Below the pieces are notes generated by a model. It was not told the DNA's origin. It saw only the letters and a list, made by a program, of their open reading frames with translations, and did not search any database. Below, piece after piece: positions 55 to 60,152 of a stretch of DNA of 64,000 nucleotides. Origin of the DNA: Candidatus Woesebacteria bacterium (GTDB lineage Bacteria; Patescibacteriota; Microgenomatia; UBA8517); contig CP065002.1 in assembly GCA_016700095.1 (NCBI GenBank), positions 716,175-780,174 of the forward strand, given 5' to 3'. Numbering within the stretch: position 1 is the stretch's first letter; each line of letters begins with the position of its first letter. The translations under genes were made by a program, and so were the position numbers.

Positions 55-1386
55 TTACTTGTGAATGTCATGTGCAACCAGCAGATGATGATACCTTCTT
101 GCAAAACGATGTGCTTCGTCTCGAAGTCGTTGTAGTAAATTTAATGCAGGCCCCTTGGGTAGTTTAACAAGATTATATTGTGCTGGTTTTTGAGTATTTT
201 TGATCACAAGTGTTTCGTATCTTTTTGCAAGACCTACTATTTGAATTTTCGTGTCGGAAAACACGTCACAAAAAACACTAACTTGCCCTTTTCCACCATC
301 AACTACGATCAGATCAGGTGTACCCCAATCACGAAGTCTAGCCTTTCTCCTTCGTGCAATTTCTTTCATTGAATCGGTATCACTCGTTTTTTTGTCTTGC
401 CGAATTTTAAAATGCCGGTATAACTTTTTTTCCGACACGCCATCGATAAACGTCACCATTGAGGCAGTCGCATTCACACCTGAAATGTGGGCAACATCAA
501 AACATTCGATACGATGCAATTTGTCGATGCTTACTCCATTTTCTTGTAAAATATTATTTAGGCTTTCACCCTCTTGTCGTCTTATGTCTTCTATGAAGTT
601 TGGGTTAATAAGGTATTTATCGATATTAATTATCGGTTGAGTAATGTATTCTAACTTATCTAATACTTCTTTGACTTTAAACGCTTCCTCATACATTTCT
701 TTGTCGGCAAATACTTTCATAGTTTTCTCTAATTCATTTCTTACCTTGTCAATATTGCCATCAAGTACTTTTTTAATTAAGCGGATGTTTGTTGTGTATT
801 TACGAGTTAATTCTTTTATTAACTTTATATCGTTTTGAATATTTATGTCGTTCGGACACGGATTACATAACCCTATTTGACTATCCAAGCAAGCTCTTTT
901 TTCCAGTACGTGATTTGAAAAAGGAAATACCCGCTTTAGTAGTCTAAGTATCACCCGGACATTTTCTCCCGATGGAAACGGTCCGTAAAACGAAATTAAG
1001 TGTTCGCTCTCGTCAATTTTTCGTGCAGTCAATACTCTTGGATATTTTTCTTTTGTAATTTTTATATATAGCGGATTCTTGTCATCGCGTAATTCAAAAT
1101 TATATTGAGGTTTATATTTCCTAACTAATTTGGCCTCCAGAAGTAACGCCTCTAGTTCACTTGCCACTTCAATATATGAAATTTTATAAGATCCCCCTAC
1201 CATAATTTTAGTCTTTCCTTCAATGCTTCCGAGAAAATAAGTAGACACCCGGTTATATAGATTTTTTGCTTTTCCGATATATCTTATTTTCCCATCTTTA
1301 TCTTGAAAGAAATACACACCCGGCGTAGTAGGTAGACTTTTTAGGAACGATTTTTTCTTAATAATATACTTTGCGTTTACGAGCAT
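55..1386 (-). CDS. uvrC: Excinuclease ABC subunit C (UvrC), short form lacking the C-terminal (HhH)2 domain
   Basis: N-terminal GIY-YIG motif (GVYFFQDKDGKIRYIGKAKNL...R). Central UvrB-interaction region. C-terminal RNase H-like endonuclease region (ECFDVAHISG...DGG.GQ...DEAHRFA). The protein ends right after this, at 443 aa versus about 600 canonical. Confidence 0.85.
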   Translation of the reverse strand: MLVNAKYIIKKKSFLKSLPTTPGVYFFQDKDGKIRYIGKAKNLYNRVSTYFLGSIEGKTKIMVGGSYKISYIEVASELEALLLEAKLVRKYKPQYNFELRDDKNPLYIKITKEKYPRVLTARKIDESEHLISFYGPFPSGENVRVILRLLKRVFPFSNHVLEKRACLDSQIGLCNPCPNDINIQNDIKLIKELTRKYTTNIRLIKKVLDGNIDKVRNELEKTMKVFADKEMYEEAFKVKEVLDKLEYITQPIINIDKYLINPNFIEDIRRQEGESLNNILQENGVSIDKLHRIECFDVAHISGVNATASMVTFIDGVSEKKLYRHFKIRQDKKTSDTDSMKEIARRRKARLRDWGTPDLIVVDGGKGQVSVFCDVFSDTKIQIVGLAKRYETLVIKNTQKPAQYNLVKLPKGPALNLLQRLRDEAHRFARRYHHLLVAHDIHK

Positions 1387-1404
1387 ATGTGGGAACTTAA
1401 TAAT

Positions 1405-3234
1405 TTATTTTCTAAATTTATGAATAATATGTAGTTTTAATTTACCCATTTTTACAAGTAATATTAAGATAAAAATAAGAAGGATAGACGATATAATTGT
1501 TAAATTAATAATGACTACGATATATTTATAAGTAGGGATACTTAAATCAATGTCTTGTACCGTAACCGACAACATGTCGGGTGTATTAAAACCAAGAACT
1601 CCATAGGGAATTTTTGTTTTAAACACCACTTCACTAAACGGCGGTATTACTTCGACTATTCTATTGTCCAATGAATTATCATCGAGACTAACCTTATATG
1701 ACAAATTGTATTCGGCCTTCGGACCTGGGTTGTAAACTGTTACCAGCGCACTGCTACCCAAAAACGGGACAACCTTTGTTCTCGAAGCTTTTATTTGCAA
1801 ATTATTCTCCCGATCTTGCGGTAGTTGTCCGAAGTTCACCCAGACATCCTTTTGAGGATTAGGACCCAATTTATACGATCCTGGGGGGAATGGTTCACGG
1901 TCGTTAACTCCGTGTATAACAAAGGCAAAATGGCGCAAATCTAACTTCGTAAAATAATCAACCCCACCTGTGGTTGAACCCCACGTAGGATCGATTGGCA
2001 CCCAAACTTTTGATACTTCATCCCAATATTCAGGCCAAGAATGCAACACGTCGGCAACTAATGACAGTGGTTCAATTTCAGGATTTTCCGTATACGCATA
2101 GCCGTTTACTTCACGGGCAGGTATTCCAGCTGCCCGCGCTAATGCTATAAATAAATCCGTGAATTCCATACATATAGCAGAGTCGGGATTACTGAGCGCT
2201 TCAACAGCTCCTAGTCGGGATACATTAGGTAATACCCTTTCATAATCGTAATAAAGAGTATTTACAACATAGTTATAAATTGCCTCCGGAGTCTTTAAAG
2301 ATTTGGCCAATTTTACAATTTCTGGATTATCACTCTGCCAATATTGAGTTGCCTTTAAGTTTTGGGCAAGTGTATCGGATGAAAATGTCATGTGCGGTTT
2401 GGGAACAGCAAATATTTCGACAGATCCCAGGACATTAACATCCAACCGCTGGCGTGGTTGTAATTCGAATTGCGCCAACCAATTGCCATCATCATCAATA
2501 CGAATCGTTGTTGGTTGTGGATCAATTTTCGTATAGTACATTCTTTGTATTGAATTATCGGGAGGAAGTGCTATATCAATTGAAGTTGCCTTGTTTATCG
2601 GATTTTCCAAATGATAAGCGAGTGAAAATGTGAATACCTGAAATTTTCCAAAACCCGCTGTAATACCACTTTTTACTACATCTTCTTTCCCAAATTCGAA
2701 TACATTTTTGCCGGCAATAGTATTGGTTAGACGCGGTTCCGGTGAAATATATGCTTTCGATCCCCAAGTATCGGGAATAACCAGCTCTACATCATAGTTA
2801 TCAAAAGTATCGTAATCTTTAAGTTTAGGAATAGTTACTTCCCATATCTCACCTTTTTGTATGGCTAAATTACGATCGTCGTAAAGAATAGTAAACTCAC
2901 GTGTTTTTCCTAAACCGACAATGTATTCATCAAAAACAACGTCGATAGTTGTACCGCCGACATCACTTTCAACCTTAATATCAATTTCCTTACCATTTTG
3001 GCTTGCTTTAATATTTTCCGGTGACAAGCTCTCAAGCGTTAATTTAAATTTCTCTGCATGGACATCCGAGCGTAAATTCTCGATACTAACCATGTGTGAA
3101 ACTTTTACCAAGCCGTCTTCTTTGATGTCATAAACAACAAACGAGTTAACCTTAAACGATTCATCGCCATATACCTGTTTTGGAAATGCAAACACGGCAA
3201 GTGCAATTAGCGTTAGTAATATATTTTTCAACAT
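1405..3234 (-). CDS. Transglutaminase-like (cysteine protease fold) secreted protein with N-terminal signal peptide and C-terminal TM anchor
   Basis: N-terminal hydrophobic signal (LLTLIALAVFAFP). Transglutaminase-core motif with catalytic Cys context (SAICMEFTDLFIALARAAGIPAREVNGYAY). C-terminal hydrophobic helix (VVIINLTIISSILLIFILILLV). Confidence 0.6.
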   Translation of the reverse strand: MLKNILLTLIALAVFAFPKQVYGDESFKVNSFVVYDIKEDGLVKVSHMVSIENLRSDVHAEKFKLTLESLSPENIKASQNGKEIDIKVESDVGGTTIDVVFDEYIVGLGKTREFTILYDDRNLAIQKGEIWEVTIPKLKDYDTFDNYDVELVIPDTWGSKAYISPEPRLTNTIAGKNVFEFGKEDVVKSGITAGFGKFQVFTFSLAYHLENPINKATSIDIALPPDNSIQRMYYTKIDPQPTTIRIDDDGNWLAQFELQPRQRLDVNVLGSVEIFAVPKPHMTFSSDTLAQNLKATQYWQSDNPEIVKLAKSLKTPEAIYNYVVNTLYYDYERVLPNVSRLGAVEALSNPDSAICMEFTDLFIALARAAGIPAREVNGYAYTENPEIEPLSLVADVLHSWPEYWDEVSKVWVPIDPTWGSTTGGVDYFTKLDLRHFAFVIHGVNDREPFPPGSYKLGPNPQKDVWVNFGQLPQDRENNLQIKASRTKVVPFLGSSALVTVYNPGPKAEYNLSYKVSLDDNSLDNRIVEVIPPFSEVVFKTKIPYGVLGFNTPDMLSVTVQDIDLSIPTYKYIVVIINLTIISSILLIFILILLVKMGKLKLHIIHKFRK

Positions 3235-3402
3235 AGACTCATAAAGTATACCTTATTGTAAAGCTAAATTTTTCTTTATTAATTTTCGAAGTGTATTAAA
3301 ACCGGACAGCTTAAAAAGTTGGCAATATGCTGTGGTTGAAGTGTAAGTTAATATAAGCTTCCTGAATGTTATTGAATATTTACGTGTGAAATTAAGATGT
3401 CG

Positions 3403-6318
3403 TCATTTAATATACTGGGCTGTATATGAGTTTTTTGCTGATTTCAAATTCTCGTAAGGTCCAGAATAAACTATTTGTCCGCCTCTATCGCCACCTTCCG
3501 GACCAAGATCAATTATCCAATCGGCATTTTTAATTACATCAATATTGTGTTCGATAACAACAACCGTATTTCCTTTCTCGACCAGTAGTCGTAATACGTT
3601 AAGCAACTTTTCAATATCTGCAAAATGCAGTCCGGTCGTGGGTTCATCGAGAATATAAATTGTTTTACCCGTTTGTCTTTTGGCCAGTTCCGCCGACAAC
3701 TTCACTCTTTGTGCTTCTCCACCCGAAAGTGTTGTCGCTGATTGACCAAGTTCCATGTAACCAAGCCCTACGGCCTGCAAAGTTTCAAGTTTTGATAAAA
3801 TTGCAGGATGTGCATGGAAAAATTCAGCCGACTCGTCTATCGTCATACTTAATATTTGAGCTATATTTTTACCTCGATACTCTACCTCAAGCGTCTGCGA
3901 ATTATAACGAGTACCTTTACAAACATCGCAAGTTACCCAAATATCGCTCATAAACTGCATTTCTATTCTGTTTTGCCCCTGACCTTCACAGGCTTCACAC
4001 CTACCGCTTTTTATATTAAATGAAAACCGCCCCTTTTTGTAACCAAACGTCTTTGCCGATCTGGTGTTGGCAAAGACATCGCGAATATTATCGAAAACTT
4101 TCGTATACGTTGCCGGGTTACTTCGCGGTGTTCTACCAATCGGAGATTGATTGATTAACACTACCTTATCGACATTTTCCACTCCCTCGATACCCGTATA
4201 TTTAGGCAAATCTTCCTTGTAATAATGTGATAATTCGTTCTGAAGAGCCGGATAAAGTGTTTCGACCAATAGTGTTGATTTTCCACTTCCCGACACTCCC
4301 GTTAGAACGACTAATTTTGCAAGCGGAAATTCAACATCAATGTTCTTTAAATTAAACTGAGATGCTCCTGTCAATTTAAGTGATTTGCTGCCCAATTCGA
4401 GGAATAACTTTTTTGTGTGTGTAATTTTTTTCTTCCCTGACAAATAATCACCTGTAATGGAATTTTTGTCTTTCACTATTTCTTCGCACGTGCCCTGAGC
4501 TATAACTCGCCCGCCAAGTTTTCCTGCACCTGGTCCAAAGTCAACGATATAGTCCGACTGTTTCATCATTTCATCATCGTGTTCAACCACAATAACCGTA
4601 TTCCCCAAGTCTCTTAATTTTTTTAACGTGTCAATTAATTTTTGATTATCACGCATATGTAAACCGATTGTCGGCTCATCGAGAACATAAAGTACTCCCG
4701 TAAGTCCCGACCCAATTTGACTTGCTAGTCGTATTCTTTGCGCTTCACCTGAGGACAAAGTGGCGGCGGATCGATCGAGCGTCAAATACTCTAAACCGAC
4801 CGAAATTAGAAACGAAAGACGATTGGAAATTTCTTTTAATATTAAATCCCCAATCTCGAGTTCTCTTGTATTTAATAAAGTTTCTTTTTGAGATAGACCG
4901 TGGATCCATTCGACGCACTGAGTAATCGACATGTTCGTAACTTCGGCTATAGACAAACCCCAAATCGTAACCGACAAAGCTTCTTTCGACAGACGTTTAC
5001 CATTACATTCTTCACAAGTTTTTTCGCGCATATATTTCTCAATCTCTTGTTTAACCCAGGTGCTTTCCGTTGCTTTATATCGGTTGGTTAATTCGGTAAT
5101 AATTCCCGTAAACGTTTCATAAATGTAAGTATTTTTCCCAAATCTGTTTTTACCCTCAACCTTATATTCCCGGTCTCCTGTGCCATGTAACAACACATCA
5201 ACATTTTCCGGTGAAAGATTTTTAAACGGAATTCTTGGATTAATGCCGTTTTTTTCACAAACTGTAAGCATTAGCCTTGAATACCATGTTTGATTTTCAA
5301 ATATATTCGAGAAAGGAAGTATCGCTCCTTCCATAATTGAAATATCATGTGCAAATAGTCTATCAGGGGCGATTTTTTGTAATCGACCTATCCCGAAACA
5401 CTTGGAACAAGCTCCGTGTGGTGAGTTAAATGAAAAAGTTCTTGGTTCCACTTCCGGAATTTGTATATTGTCATAAGGACATGCAAAACTCTGTGAATAC
5501 AAATGGTCTTCGAAACTTGTAGGATACTCGGGTATGTCAAACGTTTTATCGAGTATTTTGGAAACGATAACTAGTCCATCGGTCAATTTTAATGCTTGCT
5601 CCACCGAATCGGTCAGTCTCCCTTTAAAACTGCTTTGAAATATTTCTTCTTTCAAATCCTTGTGTGATATGGAAATTTTATCAACCATGGCTTCGATGGT
5701 ATGTTTGTTGGTTTTTATAAGCACAAAATCTTCACCCAAGTCTTTAATCGTCTTATCCACTCTCACTTTTTTAAATCCTTTGGCTTTTAAATTCGAGAAT
5801 AGGGATCCAAATTCACCCTTTTTGTCTCTTACAACGGGAGCAAAAATCATAAGCTTAATAATTTTTTCCTTTTTGGTGGTATCAAGTATCATCTTCATGA
5901 TGGCATCGACAATCTGATCAATACTTTGTGTGCTTATTTCTCTTTGACAAACCGGACAATGCGGGTGACCAATACGCGCGAAGAGTAGTCTTAAATAATC
6001 ATAAACTTCGGTAACCGTTCCGACTGTTGACCTTGGATTTCTCGATGCGGCTTTCTGATCTATTGATATAGCGGGGGAAAGTCCTTCAATTAAATCTACA
6101 TCGGGTTTTTCCATAACACCAAGAAACTGCCTGGCATACGTAGAGAGACTCTCCACATATCTTCTTTGGCCTTCGGCATAAATCGTGTCATATGCTAATG
6201 AACTTTTTCCGCTCCCCGACACACCGGTAAATACTACCAATTTATTTTTGGGTACATCGAGATCTACATTTTTTAGATTATGTACTCGTGCACCTTTAAT
6301 TATTATTTTGTCATTCAT
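3403..6318 (-). CDS. uvrA: Excinuclease ABC subunit A (UvrA)
   Basis: 971 aa with two ABC ATPase modules. Walker A GVSGSGKSSL appears twice, plus LSGGEAQR signatures and zinc-finger Cys clusters. Begins MNDKIIIKGARVHNLKNVDL. Confidence 0.95.
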   Translation of the reverse strand: MNDKIIIKGARVHNLKNVDLDVPKNKLVVFTGVSGSGKSSLAYDTIYAEGQRRYVESLSTYARQFLGVMEKPDVDLIEGLSPAISIDQKAASRNPRSTVGTVTEVYDYLRLLFARIGHPHCPVCQREISTQSIDQIVDAIMKMILDTTKKEKIIKLMIFAPVVRDKKGEFGSLFSNLKAKGFKKVRVDKTIKDLGEDFVLIKTNKHTIEAMVDKISISHKDLKEEIFQSSFKGRLTDSVEQALKLTDGLVIVSKILDKTFDIPEYPTSFEDHLYSQSFACPYDNIQIPEVEPRTFSFNSPHGACSKCFGIGRLQKIAPDRLFAHDISIMEGAILPFSNIFENQTWYSRLMLTVCEKNGINPRIPFKNLSPENVDVLLHGTGDREYKVEGKNRFGKNTYIYETFTGIITELTNRYKATESTWVKQEIEKYMREKTCEECNGKRLSKEALSVTIWGLSIAEVTNMSITQCVEWIHGLSQKETLLNTRELEIGDLILKEISNRLSFLISVGLEYLTLDRSAATLSSGEAQRIRLASQIGSGLTGVLYVLDEPTIGLHMRDNQKLIDTLKKLRDLGNTVIVVEHDDEMMKQSDYIVDFGPGAGKLGGRVIAQGTCEEIVKDKNSITGDYLSGKKKITHTKKLFLELGSKSLKLTGASQFNLKNIDVEFPLAKLVVLTGVSGSGKSTLLVETLYPALQNELSHYYKEDLPKYTGIEGVENVDKVVLINQSPIGRTPRSNPATYTKVFDNIRDVFANTRSAKTFGYKKGRFSFNIKSGRCEACEGQGQNRIEMQFMSDIWVTCDVCKGTRYNSQTLEVEYRGKNIAQILSMTIDESAEFFHAHPAILSKLETLQAVGLGYMELGQSATTLSGGEAQRVKLSAELAKRQTGKTIYILDEPTTGLHFADIEKLLNVLRLLVEKGNTVVVIEHNIDVIKNADWIIDLGPEGGDRGGQIVYSGPYENLKSAKNSYTAQYIK

Positions 6319-6341
6319 TATAGTAAGGCTAATTTATCTAG

Positions 6342-8390
6342 CTAACTTTCAAGTAGCCGTATTCGATCTCTAATTTCTGCCGCAAATTCAAAATTCAAAT
6401 CTTTTGCCGCCAACCTCATCTCAGTGCGTAGTTTACGCGTTAATTTACGCCTGTCAACCGGAGTGAGACTCTCTTTGTCTATTTCCGGTAAAGTAGTCTT
6501 GCCAAAATCTTTGTCAAACAACACCTCGAGCTCGCTATTTTTGTCCATGTCAATTAACCTTTCGCGAATAGGTTTTTTTATCGGTGTCGGTTTGATACCT
6601 AACTTTTTGTTCATATATAGTTGATATTCTCTGCGCCTTCGCACTTCACCTAACGCTCTTTCCATCGACCCTGTAATTTTATCGGCGTATAAGATAACCT
6701 TTCCGTCCACATGTCTTGCCGCTCGCCCCATTGTTTGTATAAGCGAAACTTCGCTTCTTAAAAAGCCTTCTTTGTCGGCATCGAGTATCGCAACTAAAGA
6801 TACTTCAGGTAAATCCAACCCTTCGCGCAACAAATTAACTCCGATTAAACAATCGTATGTACCTTTTCTTAAGTCATCCAAAATATCGCCTCGTTCAAGA
6901 GTTTTTACATCGGAATGTAAATAGTGCACTTTCAAGCCTTGGTCATTTAAATAGCCCGCCAAGTCTTCAGCCGTTCGTTTTGTAAGTGTGGTAATTAGCG
7001 ACCGTTCTTTCACTTTCATTGACGCCCTTTTTTTAACTTCTTTAATAACGTCTTTAACTTGCGTTCCCACCGGTCTTATTTCCACTAAGGGATCGGGGAT
7101 ACCGGTTGGCCGCATAAGTTGTTCAACGACGCCATTTCCCTCGTTTTTTTCTCCGGCAGAATGTTTGGCAATCGACAATTCCCACTCCGATGGCGTAGCT
7201 GTTGTAGCGATAAAGTTAGGAATTCGCCGCATAAATTCGTCAAATGTCAAAGGACGGTTATCAAAAGACGAAGGCAGACGAAATCCATAGTCAACCAAGG
7301 TTGTTTTTCTCGCCCTATCTCCTTGATACATACCTCGTACTTGAGGAAATGTGATATGACTTTCATCTACTATTACCAACCAATCTTTCCCAAAAGGTTC
7401 TTTGAAGTAATCAAGTAAGGTAAAAGGCGGATCTCCCGGTTTTCTTTTGTCAAAATACATCGAATAATTTTCAATTCCTTTTACATATCCTACTTCCTTT
7501 AGCATTTCCATTTCATATGTTACTTTTTGCTTTAATCTGTGCGCCTCCAGTTCTTTGCCATTGTCTTTAAGCAATTTGACCTGCTTGTCCAAATCGGCAA
7601 ATATCTTTTTAAATGTTTCCTCGTGCTCTGATGTATCAGTCATAAAGTGTTTCGCAGGATACAAAAAGAAGGTATCTTTACTGTCTTTTTCTATTATTTC
7701 ACCACTAACCGGATCGATGGAATTAACTTTACAAATTTTTCCTTGATCGATTTCTATTGTAAACCCTGTATCCTGATAAGCAGGATAGATATCAATACTA
7801 TCCCCCTTGACCCTAAATGTGCCCCTATGAAATCCAAAGTCTCCCCTGTCATATTGCAAATCCACTAACCGATCAATAATGTTTTCTCGCGATATTGTGG
7901 TTCCAACTTTGAAGGTAAAAACGAAGTTTTTATACTCTTTTGGTGATCCTATATTATAAATACACGATACGGATGCTACAACAATCGTATCCTTTCTGGT
8001 TAATAAGTTTGCGGTTGTAGCCAAACGGAGTTTATCGATTAGTTCATTTATACCGGCATCTTTCTCGATGTACGTGTCGGTACTGGGAATATAAGCTTCA
8101 GGTTGATAATAGTCATAATAACTCACGAAGTAATTAACCGAATTATCTGGAAAGAAATCCCTAAATTCCTGGTAAAGTTGACCCGCTAATGTTTTATTAT
8201 GCGAAATTATCAAAGTCGGTTTTTGCAGTTTTTCGATTAAATTTGCAACCGTAAATGTTTTTCCTGAACCCGTAACGCCCAAAAGAACTTGATAGTCAAC
8301 TCCTTTGTTAACTCCTATTTCAAGTTTTTTTATAGCCGACAATTGCTCTTTTGTGGGTTTATAAGTTGATGTTAATTTAAATTTTTGCAC
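6342..8390 (-). CDS. uvrB: Excinuclease ABC subunit B (UvrB)
   Basis: 682 aa with helicase motifs (GVTGSGKTFT, VSYYDYYQPEAY, DESH). C-terminal UvrB/UvrC interaction helix (EMRLAAKDLNFEFAAEIRDRI). Confidence 0.95.
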   Translation of the reverse strand: MQKFKLTSTYKPTKEQLSAIKKLEIGVNKGVDYQVLLGVTGSGKTFTVANLIEKLQKPTLIISHNKTLAGQLYQEFRDFFPDNSVNYFVSYYDYYQPEAYIPSTDTYIEKDAGINELIDKLRLATTANLLTRKDTIVVASVSCIYNIGSPKEYKNFVFTFKVGTTISRENIIDRLVDLQYDRGDFGFHRGTFRVKGDSIDIYPAYQDTGFTIEIDQGKICKVNSIDPVSGEIIEKDSKDTFFLYPAKHFMTDTSEHEETFKKIFADLDKQVKLLKDNGKELEAHRLKQKVTYEMEMLKEVGYVKGIENYSMYFDKRKPGDPPFTLLDYFKEPFGKDWLVIVDESHITFPQVRGMYQGDRARKTTLVDYGFRLPSSFDNRPLTFDEFMRRIPNFIATTATPSEWELSIAKHSAGEKNEGNGVVEQLMRPTGIPDPLVEIRPVGTQVKDVIKEVKKRASMKVKERSLITTLTKRTAEDLAGYLNDQGLKVHYLHSDVKTLERGDILDDLRKGTYDCLIGVNLLREGLDLPEVSLVAILDADKEGFLRSEVSLIQTMGRAARHVDGKVILYADKITGSMERALGEVRRRREYQLYMNKKLGIKPTPIKKPIRERLIDMDKNSELEVLFDKDFGKTTLPEIDKESLTPVDRRKLTRKLRTEMRLAAKDLNFEFAAEIRDRIRLLES

Positions 8391-8423
8391 ACTCTACATA
8401 ATAGCGGAAACAAATACCAAATA

Positions 8424-8481
8424 CAACCCGAATATCCAAGGCTAAATTACCTCTTGACCAATTCGGGTTTTATTTGTATAA
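8424..8481. promoter_or_regulatory. Divergent uvrB/lexA control region: 9-bp perfect inverted repeat flanking a sigma70-like -35/-10
   Basis: AACCCGAAT at 8424-8432 and ATTCGGGTT at 8460-8468, with a 27-bp spacer. TTGACC at 8454-8459 and TATAAA at 8476-8481 are 16 bp apart. Position fits a lexA promoter and possible operator; no canonical Cheo or E. coli SOS box is visible. Confidence 0.25.
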
Positions 8482-8508
8482 ATAAGAGTGTTAAAGATTT
8501 AAAAAAAT

Positions 8509-9129
8509 ATGGCACCAATAGTTTACAAACGTCAGGGACAAATTCTCGATTTCATCCGTCAGTTTATACAGACAAACAAATCTGCACCCACACTTCGTGA
8601 TATCGCCGATGCCATCAACGTTTCATCTTTGGCTACTGTTCATGAGCATTTGACCGCATTGGAACACAAAGGTTTGATAAAACGCAAAAGTGGGAAAACG
8701 CGATCGATAGAATTAGTCGGTGTTGGTGAGGAGTTGCTTGAAAAAGAGTTTGAAGTTCCCATACTTGGTTTTATTGCAGCGGGAGCCCCAATTGAACCTT
8801 ATACCGATCCCAATGCAAGTATTTCAATTCCCAACTCTTTTGCCGATAGCAAAAAGCGTATCTTTGTTCTCAAGGTCAGGGGTGAATCAATGATCGAAGC
8901 ACAAATCAGAGATGGAGATTATGTTGTCATCGAGCAAACTGATATTGCACAAAACGGGGATATTGTTGTTGCACTGCTTGATAACGGTATGGCAACACTC
9001 AAAAGATTTTTCAAAGAAGCAACTCGTATTCGATTGGAACCCGCCAATCAAAGCATGAGTCCAATATTTGTTAAAAATGTGAGAGTTCAAGGAAAAGTTG
9101 TGGGGCTTATAAGAAAGTATAAAAATTAA
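8509..9129 (+). CDS. lexA: LexA repressor (S24 peptidase)
   Basis: N-terminal wHTH (TLRDIADAINVSSLATVHEHLTALEHKGLIKR). Cleavage-site region (AAGAP). S24 catalytic Ser/Lys context (GESMIEAQIRDGDYVV...VALLDNGMATLKRF). Confidence 0.9.
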   Translation: MAPIVYKRQGQILDFIRQFIQTNKSAPTLRDIADAINVSSLATVHEHLTALEHKGLIKRKSGKTRSIELVGVGEELLEKEFEVPILGFIAAGAPIEPYTDPNASISIPNSFADSKKRIFVLKVRGESMIEAQIRDGDYVVIEQTDIAQNGDIVVALLDNGMATLKRFFKEATRIRLEPANQSMSPIFVKNVRVQGKVVGLIRKYKN

Positions 9130-9232: not shown

Positions 9233-9421
9233 CTAAAGAGTATCGTAAAGCGAAAACTCTTCCTCGACGTTTTGAGCGTCAACTTCCTCAAAGTGATCTA
9301 CATCAGACAATACATCCATTGGGTCAAAACTAGTGTCGCCTGACACAAACACACCTGAAACAAACTGTAATTGTGTTCCCTTTTTCAATCCTCCTAGGTC
9401 TTTTTTCAATCTGTACATCAT
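9233..9421 (-). CDS. Small acidic hypothetical protein (62 aa)
   Basis: Strong Shine-Dalgarno (AAGGGGGTGA) about 7 nt upstream of the ATG on the minus strand. Acidic C-terminal half. No recognisable domain. Confidence 0.35.
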   Translation of the reverse strand: MMYRLKKDLGGLKKGTQLQFVSGVFVSGDTSFDPMDVLSDVDHFEEVDAQNVEEEFSLYDTL

Positions 9422-9719
9422 TATTTATCACCCCCTTTCCCAATAGAAAAGTCTATTGTTGAAAACGGATTTCCCTAATTCGAAGATTAAGCAAAAATAA
9501 CACAATATTTGTGTCATTGCAACCCCCAAAAATGAAGTATCGGTAATTGTTTTTTTAACAAACTTTAGCTAGTAAATGAAATGCAGCTCAAAAACCTATT
9601 TTTTCTAAGGATAAGTTTGACTACGTCCTTACTTCAACTACGCCTTCTACAAGAAGTTTTCGTTTAATAAGAATAGACTACTTACGAAAAGTTCTTTTTA
9701 ATACCACCCGGTACTTTTA

Positions 9720-11427: not shown

Positions 11428-12693
11428 TTAATGTTTCAACAATTCTTGTTCGATAGTAAGAAGGCGATTGTATTTTTCAACTCTCTCCCCTCTTGCCGGT
11501 GCTCCAAATTTAACAAAGTCAGCACCCACCCCGACCGCAAAATCTGCGATGAACCAGTCATTTGTTTCCCCCGATCTGTGAGACACGATAACCTTCCAAC
11601 CTGCGTCTCTGGTTTGCTTAATTACTTTTAGTGTTTCCGTAACTGTCCCAATCTGATTTGGTTTAACAAGTATTGCATCACACGCTTTTTCCGATATGGC
11701 TTTTGCAACACGTTGGGGATTGGTTGCAAGTAAATCATCACCGACAATCGTAACCTGATCTTTCATTTCAGCATACAATTTCTTCCAGCTGTCCCACGCA
11801 TCTTCATGAAATGCGTCCTCTAAAATCGCCAGGTGATACTGATTATTTATACTTTTGTAATATTCCATCAGTCCTTCGTCTTTAAGGGGTGTCGATTTGT
11901 CCCGTATGGTGTATTCTCCGTTTTTATAAAATACGCTAGCTGCCACATCAAGTCCGAGAAATACATCTCGACCAAGCGAATAGTTGGTTTCCTTAATTGA
12001 TTCGACAACCACTTCGAGAGCATCGGCATTCGTAAATAGATTTGGAGCATAGCCACCTTCATCACCAACCGAATGCACTGCACCTCGTCGATCTAAATTT
12101 TTACCAAGAGTCATATATATTTCCGATCCTGTTCGCAGAGCTTCTGTGTATGATTTGCTCGACGCGGGAATTACCTGAAACTCCTGAAAATCCAAATTTC
12201 CGGAGCCGTGCAGTCCACCATTAACCATGTTAAATATAGGTGAAGGTACGTGGACTACGGGAGATAATCCAACTCCTTGTGCAAGCGAAGCAATCCACCG
12301 ATAGACAGTCGTGTTGTTGGCGTAAGCCGCCACTTTAGCAACAACTTGCGACACGGCGAGAATAGCATTAGATCCCATTTTCGATTTATTTGACGAGCCA
12401 TCAAGAGCAATGAGTTTGTCATCAATGGCGTTTTGATTCTCGACAGGCATACCGCTTAAACTTGGTCCTAAAATGTCGTTAATATTTTTGACAGCTTTCA
12501 AAACACCCTTGCCCAAAAAACGTTTTTCGTCCAGATCGCGCATTTCAACTGCCTCATGTGTCCCTGTTGATACACCCGCGGGTACACTGGTAACCGCAAT
12601 ATGACCTGTCCCCAACTGGCACGCCGCCTCGACGGTAGGAACACCACGCGAATCAAGAATTTCTCGTGCCCATATTTTTGTTATTGTAGACAT
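11428..12693 (-). CDS. eno: Enolase (copy 1, within the glycolytic cluster)
   Basis: ILDSRGVPTVE..., SHRSGETND, KPNQIGTVTE. Metal and catalytic residues conserved. Confidence 0.95.
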   Translation of the reverse strand: MSTITKIWAREILDSRGVPTVEAACQLGTGHIAVTSVPAGVSTGTHEAVEMRDLDEKRFLGKGVLKAVKNINDILGPSLSGMPVENQNAIDDKLIALDGSSNKSKMGSNAILAVSQVVAKVAAYANNTTVYRWIASLAQGVGLSPVVHVPSPIFNMVNGGLHGSGNLDFQEFQVIPASSKSYTEALRTGSEIYMTLGKNLDRRGAVHSVGDEGGYAPNLFTNADALEVVVESIKETNYSLGRDVFLGLDVAASVFYKNGEYTIRDKSTPLKDEGLMEYYKSINNQYHLAILEDAFHEDAWDSWKKLYAEMKDQVTIVGDDLLATNPQRVAKAISEKACDAILVKPNQIGTVTETLKVIKQTRDAGWKVIVSHRSGETNDWFIADFAVGVGADFVKFGAPARGERVEKYNRLLTIEQELLKH

Positions 12694-16397: not shown

Positions 16398-17081
16398 ATG
16401 CCTAGTCCAAATATTTTAAAAACTTATGTAAAGGGTGGTTACTATCATATATATAACAGAGGTGTGGCAAAACAACATATATTTCTTGACAGTAAAGATT
16501 ACCACGTCTTTTTGAGTTATCTTAAAGATGCTTTGATCAAACCCATTCCCAAATCATTTAAAAAAATTGAGGTAAGCTTTAAAGGACAGACCTTTAAAGG
16601 TATTCCTAGACCGGTAAATAATTACTTTGACAAAATATCGCTTGTTTGTTATTGCCTGATGCCAAATCACTTTCATCTCGTAGTTCAACAAACTGAAATA
16701 TCATCAATGCAAAACTTCATGAAGTCTGTTTCAACCAGATACTCTCAGTATTTTAATAAACGTTACGATAGAATTGGGCCTTTGTTCCAGGGAAGATATA
16801 AGGCTGCACTTATTACGGATGATCACTATCTACTTCACCTTTCCCGTTACATCCACCTTAACCCCCTCGGAATGGTAAAGAGTTTGGAATCCGCATATTC
16901 ATCATATTCTAATTATCTTGGAACACGAAACACTTCATGGATTAATCCGAATATCGTTCTTGAGTTTTTCAACAAAAATAAGGATGTCCAATTTAAAAAC
17001 AACCTGACTTATAAAAGCTTTGTCGAAGATATAAAAATCAATAGTAAAAAAGCTTTGGGGAAGAAAGCAATTGATTGGTGA
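16398..17081 (+). CDS. IS200/IS605-family Y1 (HuH) transposase-domain protein (RAYT/TnpA-like), no TnpB partner
   Basis: YHIYNRG...IF motif and HuH motif LMPNHFHLVV, with downstream Tyr-containing region (RYIHLNP). Only plus-strand gene within a long minus-strand run. Flanked upstream by CCTTGAAAGG/CCTTTAAAGG near-repeats (16360-16390). Confidence 0.7.
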   Translation: MPSPNILKTYVKGGYYHIYNRGVAKQHIFLDSKDYHVFLSYLKDALIKPIPKSFKKIEVSFKGQTFKGIPRPVNNYFDKISLVCYCLMPNHFHLVVQQTEISSMQNFMKSVSTRYSQYFNKRYDRIGPLFQGRYKAALITDDHYLLHLSRYIHLNPLGMVKSLESAYSSYSNYLGTRNTSWINPNIVLEFFNKNKDVQFKNNLTYKSFVEDIKINSKKALGKKAIDW

Positions 17082-33879: not shown

Positions 33880-35313
33880 ATGTTTAAAACTCATTATTCC
33901 CCCAAAAGCCCGATGGTTTTTGTCGATGTCGAAACAACCGGCGGTAGTCCCAGCCAGGACAGAATAACCGAAATTGGGATTATCAGAGTTGAAAACGAAA
34001 AAATTGTCACCAAATACCAATCGCTAATTAATCCGCAAACTCATATTCCGATATTTATTCAACATATGACAGGTATCAATCCAAAGCTTACCGACAAGGC
34101 TCCTGTGTTTGAAGAAATAAAATCTGACATACGAGAAATTACCGAAGGAGCAATTTTTGTAGCACATAATGCAAAGTTCGACTATTCGTTTCTTCAGGGA
34201 GAATTCATCCGACTAAATGATATTTTTAAGGCTAAGGTTTTGTGTTCGGTCAGACTATCGCGCTTTCTTTACCCCAATCATTCTAAACATAATTTATCAA
34301 GTATCGTTGAAAGATTTTCGATTGATGTTCCCAACAGGCACCGCGCGTATGATGATGCACATGCAATCTGGGAATTTTTTCAAAAGGCAAAAACCGACCT
34401 TGGAAAGGATACTTTTGAAGAGGCGGTACGAAAAATACTGAAAGGTCCGAGCTTACCTATTTTTTCAAATCAAAAATCCTTTGATGAATTTACCAGTGAA
34501 TCGGGTATTTACAAGTTTTTTGGTGGAATAAACAACATGGACAACGAGTTGTTATATGTTGGCAAAAGCACATCTTTGCGTACACGAATATATTCCCATT
34601 TCACTCCCGGTAAAGGACCACAAACCGACCTTTTACTGGCTAAATATACTCAAAATATTGAAACCATAGAAACAGCCGGAGATTTAAGTGCTCAACTATT
34701 GGAGAAACGCGAAATAATAAAGGGTAAACCGCTTATGAATAAATCTCTTTCCCAAATTAGAGCCCGTATATTTTTACAGGAAACAGTAATTAATGGATAT
34801 AGGGCGATCAAACAAGTATCGGAAAGTGAAATTAATAAGGATAATATGTATTCAATTCTGTCATGTTACACATCCAAAAAGGCAATGATAGAAGCGTTAC
34901 GCGACTTAGCTAATACTTACCTATTGTGCCCCAGATTTCTTGGCCTTGAACATGCTGATGGACCGTGTTTTTCATATCAAATCGGTAAATGTAATGGTGC
35001 CTGCTCATGCAAAGAACAAAATATGAAATATAATTTACGCTTTACGCAAGCTTTTGCTAATACACGTGTTAAACCTTGGCCATTCAAATCTGCTGTTGCA
35101 ATAAGTGAATCAAACACACACATGACCCAAACACATATAGTTAATAACTGGATATACTACAAACTTATAACTATTTCGTCAGAACTTATGGATCCGGTAG
35201 AAGAATTTTTCCCCGGAAATTTCGATTGGGATACATATCTTATTTTGAAACGCTTTCTTATATCAAAGTATAAACACTCCAATTTAGCAATAAAAAACAT
35301 CGATAATTATTAG
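33880..35313 (+). CDS. DEDDh 3'-5' exonuclease (DnaQ-like) fused to a GIY-YIG nuclease domain (Cho/Rv2191-like)
   Basis: Exo motifs I VFVDVETTG, II AHNAKFDYSFL, III HRAYDDAHA. GIY-YIG segment GIYKFFGG...LLYVGKSTSLRTRIYSHF. 477 aa. Confidence 0.75.
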   Translation: MFKTHYSPKSPMVFVDVETTGGSPSQDRITEIGIIRVENEKIVTKYQSLINPQTHIPIFIQHMTGINPKLTDKAPVFEEIKSDIREITEGAIFVAHNAKFDYSFLQGEFIRLNDIFKAKVLCSVRLSRFLYPNHSKHNLSSIVERFSIDVPNRHRAYDDAHAIWEFFQKAKTDLGKDTFEEAVRKILKGPSLPIFSNQKSFDEFTSESGIYKFFGGINNMDNELLYVGKSTSLRTRIYSHFTPGKGPQTDLLLAKYTQNIETIETAGDLSAQLLEKREIIKGKPLMNKSLSQIRARIFLQETVINGYRAIKQVSESEINKDNMYSILSCYTSKKAMIEALRDLANTYLLCPRFLGLEHADGPCFSYQIGKCNGACSCKEQNMKYNLRFTQAFANTRVKPWPFKSAVAISESNTHMTQTHIVNNWIYYKLITISSELMDPVEEFFPGNFDWDTYLILKRFLISKYKHSNLAIKNIDNY

Positions 35314-45416: not shown

Positions 45417-45752
45417 TCCGGCTCATTATAGCAAGTTATGTAAATCCCATGTAAAGACTTTTAAGTTTAATATGTTGTGATAACATTAACTTCCAAGACA
45501 TTTTGTTGCTATTACTAATTTAATTCACTTTGTATGCGACTGTATCACTGTTCTTAGCATCGAAGTTGGTTTGAAACAAGTAAATTTTTTGCATAATATT
45601 TGAAGCTTCACAATCTTATACTTTTGTTAATTCTTCAAGCATGTGTTGTTTAATTTCATACGTCGTGTTCGGATAGTCTTCATCCTCGTGCTCAAGTTTG
45701 TCGTTTTGATATTTGTCGTGACAAACATGAAATAAATAATTATTAGTACCAG

Positions 45753-58844: not shown

Positions 58845-60152
58845 TTACCTTTGTTTTCCTGTAAACGGAGTGTTACCGGTGAATTCAACAGTCTGACTAA
58901 GTTTTACCAAATCAATCTCATCAATATCCAGTAAACGATTGTATTTGGCAACCCTTTCACTTCTTGCCGGGGCACCAGTTTTAATCTGTCCGGATGCAGT
59001 TGCTACACAAAGATCAGATATAAAAGCATCTTCTGTCTCTCCTGATCTATGAGAGACAATTGTATTCCAATTAGCTTCCTTACATTTTGCAATCGCATTT
59101 AGGGTTTCTGTAACCGTTCCGATTTGGTTTAATTTAACCAAAAGTGCATTGGCTGATTTTTCCTGAATCGCCCGGTCTATCCGTTTAGTGTTTGTAACCA
59201 AAAAATCATCACCGACTATTTGTACTTTTTTCCCTAATTTCTGGGTCAACGCCGTCCACCCTTCCCAATCATCTTGATCCAAGGCATCTTCAAGTGAAAT
59301 AATCGGATAATTATTTACAAGCTCTTCCCACATAATTATCATTTCATCACTTGTTAATTCACGATTCTGCGTGTGCAGTTTGTATTTTTTATTGTCTTTG
59401 TCATAAATTTCAGATACGGCTGGATCAAGGGCGATTGAAATTTCCTCCCCGGGTTTATACCCTGCTTGGACAATAGCATCGGTAATTAAGTCAATCAGCT
59501 TGGTATTTGACTGGATATTCGGAGCAAATCCACCCTCGTCACCAACAAGAGTCGAATAACCTTTTTTACCAAGTAGCGATTTAAGGGCGTGGTATGTTTC
59601 TACTCCCCACATTAACCCTTGTGAAAAAGTATCGGCTCCACTGGGCACAATCATATATTCCTGGAAATCCGAACCCTCCCAATTTACATGTGCTCCGCCG
59701 TTTATTATATTCATCATGGGAATGGGAAGACTCATCTTGGGTTCTCCAAACAAGCTATTTATGTAGTGAAATACTTCTTTGCCGGAAACCAAAGCAGCAG
59801 TTCGCACAACAGCCATCGAAACCGCAAGAATGGCATTGGCTCCAAGTCTTGATTTATTCTCAGTTCCGTCAAGTTCGATCATCAGCTTATCAATGTTTAC
59901 CTGATCGAAAATGTCATGACCAACCAAAATCTTTTCTATCTCCTCTACATTGCCGATAGCTTTTTCAACACCTAATCCCAAAAAACGCTCACCGTGGTCT
60001 CGTAACTCCAAAGCTTCGTGATCACCTGTTGAAGCACCGGAAGGAACCATTGCTGAAGCAGTGTGGTTATTTACCGTAACTTCAACTTTTACCGTAGGAT
60101 TGCCACGCGAGTCAAAGCGCTGATAAGCTTTAACTTTGTCGATAGTACTCAT
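58845..60152 (-). CDS. Enolase (copy 2, divergent paralog)
   Basis: FDSRGNPTVKVEV, SHRSGETED, KLNQIGTVTE. All catalytic and metal residues appear intact. Shares the conserved core motifs with copy 1 at 11428-12693 but diverges elsewhere. Confidence 0.9.
   Translation of the reverse strand: MSTIDKVKAYQRFDSRGNPTVKVEVTVNNHTASAMVPSGASTGDHEALELRDHGERFLGLGVEKAIGNVEEIEKILVGHDIFDQVNIDKLMIELDGTENKSRLGANAILAVSMAVVRTAALVSGKEVFHYINSLFGEPKMSLPIPMMNIINGGAHVNWEGSDFQEYMIVPSGADTFSQGLMWGVETYHALKSLLGKKGYSTLVGDEGGFAPNIQSNTKLIDLITDAIVQAGYKPGEEISIALDPAVSEIYDKDNKKYKLHTQNRELTSDEMIIMWEELVNNYPIISLEDALDQDDWEGWTALTQKLGKKVQIVGDDFLVTNTKRIDRAIQEKSANALLVKLNQIGTVTETLNAIAKCKEANWNTIVSHRSGETEDAFISDLCVATASGQIKTGAPARSERVAKYNRLLDIDEIDLVKLSQTVEFTGNTPFTGKQR

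Follow-up and report, generated by a model that had tools for sequence, protein, structure and literature searches.

In Escherichia coli, uvrA and uvrB are under the control of LexA through the box CTGT-N8-ACAG, and in Bacillus subtilis the uvrBA operon is under that of the Cheo box, GAAC-N4-GTTC. An SOS network with the same regulator has reportedly been described by Sanchez-Osuna, Barbe and Erill in 2017 (Environ Microbiol 19:3465) for the Patescibacteria, the superphylum from which the DNA studied here comes. This DNA is a 64-kb stretch (G+C content 38%) of a Candidatus Woesebacteria genome (contig CP065002.1; Patescibacteria, candidate phyla radiation), which we refer to as the window. In it lexA and uvrB diverge from an intergenic region of 118 bp (8391-8508), where an earlier note on the same DNA had pointed to a 9-bp inverted repeat – AACCCGAAT at 8425-8433 and ATTCGGGTT at 8461-8469, with 27 nt between – as a candidate LexA operator. 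The repeat lies exactly where the note placed it, but comparison with related species makes it quite likely that its arms belong to two separate predicted LexA operators, one for each divergent promoter and each a direct repeat of the form TTCG-N7-TTYG.

Direct-repeat operators have been described for LexA in other lineages. The alphaproteobacterial LexA box is the direct repeat GTTC-N7-GTTC (PMC8565304), and motif discovery on lexA promoters of the Balneolaeota gave the direct-repeat motif TTACACATATTTTWTACATA (PMC7739468); the latter paper names the 2017 Patescibacteria study among the cases in which LexA has evolved to recognize direct repeats. Across known SOS systems, autoregulation of lexA together with control of repair genes is the rule (PMC8565304). 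When the intergenic region 8391-8508 was scanned for known boxes, no match within two mismatches was found to GAAC-N4-GTTC, CTGT-N8-ACAG, GTTC-N7-GTTC, or the cyanobacterial and Balneolaeota boxes – the absence of the first two having been noted before – and two mismatches were needed for the Bdellovibrio and Geobacter patterns to match.

The evidence for the lexA-side operator comes from promoter conservation. One scan of species-representative genomes yielded 44 Woesebacteria-type lexA loci (LexA 54-81% identical; genomes labelled Woesebacteria, Microgenomates or Patescibacteria) plus 36 planctomycete loci. We aligned on the -35 hexamer 41 lexA promoters, that of the window and those of 40 relatives whose LexA and UvrB are 64-84% and 60-70% identical to the window's, respectively, and obtained the consensus cTTGACAnn-TTCGGGTwwwRTTYGTA. 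The element TTCGGGTwwwRTTYG is near-invariant, being conserved to the same degree as the -35 hexamer: TTCGG is present in all 41 promoters, the next G in 37 and the T in 39, and the 3′ half, beyond four loosely conserved positions, has TT in all 41, then a Y or A, and then G in 40. On either side of the element, conservation falls to 0.1-0.5 bit per position. The element fills the 17 nt that separate -35 from -10, with the final TA of the consensus overlapping the start of the -10 hexamer, and is not palindromic; the right arm, ATTCGGGTT, is its 5′ part. A near-invariant element thus occupies the -35/-10 spacer of 41 lexA promoters, and is a candidate operator for lexA autoregulation. The lexA promoter itself was defined from this alignment; a promoter scanner omits it, since TATAAA has no T at position 6. 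Both of its hexamers, TTGACC and TATAAA, had been recognized earlier, with a spacer given as 16 nt that is in fact 17 nt. A different element is conserved in the planctomycete lexA promoters (loci L044-L080), TGTAC-N4-GTATAT, which is often present twice and likewise lies in the -35/-10 spacer, e.g. TTGACTCTGTACGGTTGTATATTAT.

A 15-nt matrix trained on the lexA operators of the 40 other species, with the window left out, ranks the lexA-side site first and the uvrB-side site second in the whole 64 kb (coordinates and scores in Table 1). The third-ranked match reaches 12.8 bits and falls within the coding sequence of an MFS transporter gene. From the exact score distribution, 5e-5 matches of at least 18.3 bits, the score of the second site, are expected in the 118-bp region.

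The left arm appears to serve the other gene. On the uvrB strand the window reads TTCGGGTTGTATTTGG - 13 nt - TATTAT - 7 nt - GTG, and a closer relative, L081 (LexA 83% identical), in which a 523-aa gene is inserted between uvrB and lexA, has ahead of uvrB TTCGGGTTGTGTTTGG - 13 nt - TATTAT - 7 nt - GTG at the same spacing, the counterpart of the operator being TTCGGGTTGTGTTTG. TATTAT-GTAGnnT-GTG is common to both, and the 13 nt between operator and -10 are not conserved. Because L081 keeps the site at uvrB despite the inserted gene, the left arm is assigned, on this comparison, to uvrB and not to lexA; it is best described as an opposite-strand site in the uvrB promoter rather than as one half of a lexA operator. 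The uvrB promoter is probably TTGTAT-17-TATTAT, and the proximity of its -10 to the start codon suggests that the uvrB mRNA is leaderless or nearly so. The usual UvrB N-terminus begins at this GTG, and direct reading of the in-frame codons 5′ of it gives ATG-TAG. An alternative -10, TATTTG (8411-8416, directly 3′ of the operator), was dropped in favour of the TATTAT at 8398-8403 that is conserved in L081. The uvrB-side operator may also include a third phased repeat (8410-8432, minus strand), with TTCGG at 8432, TTTGG at 8421 and TTTCC at 8410 in 11-nt steps.

The lexA-trained matrix is over-specific, in that it detects the window's uvrB site and misses most uvrB sites of the relatives, and therefore a half-site pattern and a de novo expectation-maximization (EM) search were used. 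In the 75 nt upstream of uvrB, TTCG-N7-TTCG occurs perfectly in nine of 38 loci and with at most one mismatch in 17, compared with 0.07% and 1.7% of shuffled controls, respectively. Among spacers of 3-12 nt enrichment is seen only at N7 (17/38 loci, versus 0-4 for the others). Run on the sequences upstream of uvrB after the entire lexA promoter had been masked, the EM search returned aCTTTCG-N6-TTTCGG in about half of the loci, at distances of 23-53 nt from the uvrB start. When the masking covered the operator alone, the search found only the lexA -35 hexamer, in reverse complement, nothing else of that promoter having been hidden from it. In the window, the best EM register coincides with the second and third of the phased repeats described above (TTTGG and TTTCC).

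Where uvrA is separated from uvrB, a site of the TTCGGGTTTT type coincides in position with the -35 of a uvrA promoter whose -10 resembles TATAAT, in the orientation opposite to that in lexA promoters (six such loci are given in Table 1). A second, inverted operator-like site is found just downstream of the lexA -10 in L081 (~3100-3140), L085 (~1120-1165) and L087, and likewise in L010, L012, L020, L024, L029, L037, L038 and L040; CACAAAGATTTACCGAA, for instance, is TTCGGTAAATCTTTG in reverse complement. Predicted operators in opposed pairs are thus common in this lineage, with variable geometry. The lexA, uvrB and uvrA sites share the form TTCG(G)-N6/7-TT(C/T)G(G), with a period of 11 bp, in either orientation and at several promoter-overlapping positions. 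Because it is used in both orientations and at several such positions, the motif appears to behave as a repressor site and not as a promoter element. Since the EM search recovers TTTCG-N6-TTTCGG and only N7 is enriched, the predicted operator is read as a direct repeat with an 11-bp period and the core TTCG-N7-TT(C/T)G, which in this genome takes the form TTCGGGT-N4-TTTG.

We consider it rather unlikely that the element is the site of another regulator, or an intrinsic feature of the promoter spacer, and not a LexA site. Its fixed register in the -35/-10 spacer throughout the lexA promoters is as expected of a promoter-intrinsic element, but in the uvrB and uvrA promoters the same motif varies in register and stands in either orientation with respect to the -10. 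There is, moreover, no other convincing operator site in the 64 kb, nor anything of comparable strength in its other non-coding DNA, and autoregulation of lexA is the rule in characterized SOS systems (PMC8565304).

The inverted repeat as a whole requires an explanation of its own, for its arms can be extended to 16 nt (8418-8433 and 8461-8476) with 15 of the 16 positions pairing. When the 118-bp region was shuffled 2000 times, a perfect 9-bp inverted repeat arose in 72 of the shuffles, which makes it only marginally unusual; a 15-of-16 arm was reached in one of 2000, and is clearly non-random. This degree of complementarity would favour a single bipartite palindromic operator – with 9-bp arms at N27, or in the 16-nt version – to which a LexA dimer or tetramer would bind as a single unit and which would bracket the lexA promoter, and a centre-to-centre distance of 44 bp, or about four helical turns, would allow proteins bound at the two sites to share a face of the helix. 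The repeat does not in fact bracket the whole promoter, as had been claimed, since the right arm sits inside the lexA -35/-10 spacer and the left arm 20 nt upstream of the -35. Nor are the arms conserved jointly at fixed spacing: among the 41 aligned lexA promoters the right element is kept in every one, and no other lexA promoter has the N27 partner. Each arm is found alone in relatives, whose second operators lie at other distances and orientations, e.g. downstream of the -10 in L081, L085 and L087. Known LexA dimers contact some 14-20 bp, as in the E. coli LexA-DNA structure 3JSO, which likewise counts against one long operator, and we regard this arrangement as very improbable. What is conserved at the lexA orthologs differs from the proposed repeat, although it is not the alternative palindrome that the earlier note had allowed for; it is a direct repeat, and it contains the right arm. 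Chance, or a purely structural role as a DNA cruciform, RNA hairpin or attenuator without operator function, is the least credible account of the repeat, for although the perfect 9-bp repeat alone is marginal, both arms score far above chance by a matrix built from other species, neither would be transcribed into lexA or uvrB mRNA from the predicted promoters, and no terminator-like structure is predicted at the repeat.

Two separate operators account for the inverted repeat simply as a by-product of two near-identical asymmetric sites facing apart: their TTCGGGTT heads are identical, and in this outward orientation they appear as the inverted repeat AACCCGAAT-N27-ATTCGGGTT. The region is most likely a normal SOS control region whose operator is specific to the lineage. 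The expectation that it would reveal the LexA operator of this lineage is thus borne out insofar as the 41-promoter alignment yields a probable operator matching neither classical box, but that operator is not the N27 palindrome. The 118 bp would hold two back-to-back sigma-70-type promoters with one LexA operator each, that of P(lexA) (TTGACC-17-TATAAA) filling the spacer at 8462-8476 and that of P(uvrB) (TTGTAT-17-TATTAT) covering the -35 on the minus strand at 8432-8418. A LexA dimer on each site would block RNA polymerase at both promoters, repressing lexA itself and uvrB-uvrA, and perhaps, through read-through, a transglutaminase-like gene and uvrC further downstream. Both promoters would be freed when LexA, stimulated by RecA upon DNA damage, cleaves itself. 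Cooperation between dimers at the two sites is possible, though without support in this analysis.

The gene identities and the sequence elements, with their conservation and statistics, are observed directly; that LexA binds the sites, where transcription starts and how far the operon extends are inferred, and several observations weigh against the reading given here. The motif is assigned to LexA on two grounds, that lexA is almost everywhere autoregulated and that the motif is confined to lexA and uvr promoters. About half of the relatives' uvrB promoters have no recognizable site, and the window's uvrB -35 and -10 are weak matches, picked by comparison with one relative. The second half-site in lexA promoters is usually TTTG or TTAG rather than TTCG, so that the direct-repeat interpretation leans mainly on the uvrB sites. 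No site is found in the window at ruvC, dnaE, polX, the gene for a DEDD-exonuclease/GIY-YIG Cho-like protein or a DNA alkylation repair gene, and tblastn with E. coli RecA found no recA in the window or in the related loci (44 loci, 745 kb).

In the 336 bp ahead of dnaE, TTCG-N7-TTCG is matched twice with one mismatch (45561-45575, minus strand, and 45668-45682, plus strand). Both matches were rejected, having no promoter context; the window holds 65 such matches, and the number upstream of dnaE is near chance. The Cho-like gene (33880-35313, plus strand) encodes a 477-aa protein in which a DnaQ-like DEDD exonuclease is fused to a GIY-YIG nuclease resembling Cho/UvrC, and the gene has no operator-like site upstream; in E. 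coli, cho is SOS-regulated. Rfam and tRNA scans of the 64 kb gave nothing at threshold.

Table 1. Genes, promoter elements and candidate operators of the lexA-uvr locus (window coordinates, except in the last row).
Feature	Position	Strand	Remarks
uvrC	55-1386	-	Pfam PF01541 + PF08459; NCBIfam TIGR00194, 320 bits (cutoff 285)
Transglutaminase-like gene, 609 aa ("X" in the earlier note)	1405-3234	-	Pfam PF01841
uvrA	3403-6318	-	Pfam UvrA_inter, UvrA_DNA-bind, ABC_tran
uvrB	6342-8390	-	Pfam UvrB_inter, UvrB, UVR, Helicase_C; GTG start at 8390
Probable uvrB -10, TATTAT	8398-8403	-	7 nt ahead of GTG; kept in L081
Candidate uvrB-side LexA operator, TTCGGGTTGTATTTG (left arm)	8418-8432	-	18.3 bits with matrix from 40 other species
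Probable uvrB -35-like hexamer, TTGTAT	8421-8426	-	Overlapped by the uvrB-side operator
lexA -35, TTGACC	8454-8459	+	TTGAC invariant in 41/41 aligned lexA promoters
Candidate lexA-side LexA operator, TTCGGGTTTTATTTG (right arm)	8462-8476	+	24.7 bits, best match in the 64-kb window
lexA -10, TATAAA	8477-8482	+	17 nt after -35; TA kept in 37-38 of 41 promoters
lexA, 206 aa	8509-9129	+	Pfam PF01726 + PF00717; TIGR00498
TTCGGGTTTT-type uvrA sites in related loci	L005 4316, L015 6653, L026 1446, L028 6290, L037 5030, L039 5931		

The LexA encoded at this locus is by its sequence a conventional member of the family (198 bits for TIGR00498, whose cutoff is 111). The N-terminal domain matches PF01726 (E = 2.4e-18, residues 7-65) and the C-terminal S24 peptidase domain PF00717 (E = 1e-29), and the nearest solved relative is Thermotoga maritima LexA, 3K2Z (E = 3e-36). 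An AAG cleavage motif, the serine of GESM and the lysine of LKRF align in register with 3K2Z and with a second solved LexA, and the protein retains an intact winged-helix DNA-binding domain, Ala-Gly cleavage site and Ser/Lys dyad.

The genes form a compact lexA and nucleotide-excision-repair module that is conserved across ~35 Woesebacteria species, the order uvrB-uvrA-transglutaminase-uvrC, divergent from or near lexA, being kept in ~35 of the 44 Woesebacteria-type loci. The uvr genes lie on one strand with lexA divergent from uvrB over 118 bp, and the gaps are 23 bp (uvrB/uvrA), 168 bp (uvrA/transglutaminase) and 18 bp (transglutaminase/uvrC); coordinates and Pfam/NCBIfam matches here agree with what had been described for the strands, the divergence and the uvrB/uvrA gap. 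The 168-bp gap contains a promoter-like TTAATA-16-TACAAT, and no terminator was predicted in it. By Pfam, the domain sets of UvrA, UvrB and UvrC are all present, as expected of a UvrABC nucleotide excision repair system. UvrC is a short form, 443 aa against the 574 positions of the TIGR00194 profile, in which GIY-YIG and RNase H-like domains were found; a Pfam search at E <= 1e-3 gave no C-terminal HhH and no UVR domain.

The translation of the transglutaminase-like gene has a signal-peptide-like N-terminal segment and a hydrophobic C-terminal anchor, and the protein has no NCBIfam match. The gene lies between uvrA and uvrC in ~35 Woesebacteria species (loci L002-L047 and L083). In L023, L035, L042, L043 and L083 it is directly divergent from lexA, with neither uvrB nor uvrA between, and in L083 its apparent promoter is not overlapped by any operator. 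An apparent cell-surface protein is in this way closely tied to lexA and the repair genes.

Other features of the window lie outside the module. A 62-aa open reading frame (ORF) convergent with lexA (9233-9421, minus strand; MMYRLKKDL...FDPMDV...HFEEV) has 56% identity to its counterpart in L081 and no Pfam match. Since L085 and L087 have similar ORFs of 61 aa in the corresponding place, a genuine small gene is probable. Relatives have a DedA/VTT-domain gene between the small ORF and a phosphoglycerate mutase gene, which in the window is replaced by ~300 bp of non-coding DNA (9422-9719) in which tblastn found no remnant. Two full-length enolase genes (11428-12693 and 58845-60152, both minus strand) are present within 64 kb of a reduced genome, and an IS200/Y1-transposase-like gene (16398-17081, plus strand) is inserted among glycolysis and phosphoglucomutase genes.

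These findings provide a testable LexA operator for an uncultivated lineage with reduced genomes, with two sites in 118 bp and a motif backed by ~40 species. They would also add a case of LexA reading a direct repeat and not a palindrome, which bears on how half-site orientation changes in the evolution of a dimeric winged-helix repressor, and they suggest that the main output of the Woesebacteria SOS response is error-free excision repair. For annotation they carry a caution, namely that what looks like one long inverted repeat in the space separating divergent genes can be two opposed copies of an asymmetric operator. A literature search, to which the 2017 Patescibacteria study itself was external, found no statement of a Patescibacteria LexA motif sequence. 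That study probably covers the Woesebacteria motif, and we think it doubtful that the motif is as yet undescribed. If it were, it would represent independent, convergent direct-repeat recognition by LexA in the alphaproteobacterial 11-bp phase, with a minimal regulon of lexA and excision-repair genes in a reduced-genome lineage, a conclusion to which we give only a small chance. With such an independent origin, the transcript induced by DNA damage might also include the conserved transglutaminase-like gene and its cell-surface product.

In its build the predicted operator resembles the alphaproteobacterial box, likewise a direct repeat with 4-nt half-sites sharing TTC, a rigid 7-nt spacer and an 11-bp period, found in promoters of lexA and repair genes. 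The Woesebacteria half-site is TTCG(G), however, and not GTTC; the base ahead of the first TTCG in the lexA sites is C or A in 33 of 41, and the window's intergenic region has no GTTC-N7-GTTC within two mismatches. Because the Patescibacteria lineage is unrelated to the Alphaproteobacteria, the likeness is probably convergent. With the Balneolaeota motif the predicted operator shares its non-palindromic, direct-repeat nature, but the sequence is unrelated, with no match within two mismatches, and the Balneolaeota regulon is centred on translesion polymerases, which are not seen in the Woesebacteria window. As in E. coli and B. subtilis, LexA would repress excision-repair genes and lexA itself through operators overlapping the promoters, and the uvrB-uvrA tandem is that of Bacillus; unlike in either, the operator has a different sequence and symmetry, lexA divergently adjoins uvrB, and uvrC is part of the same cluster.

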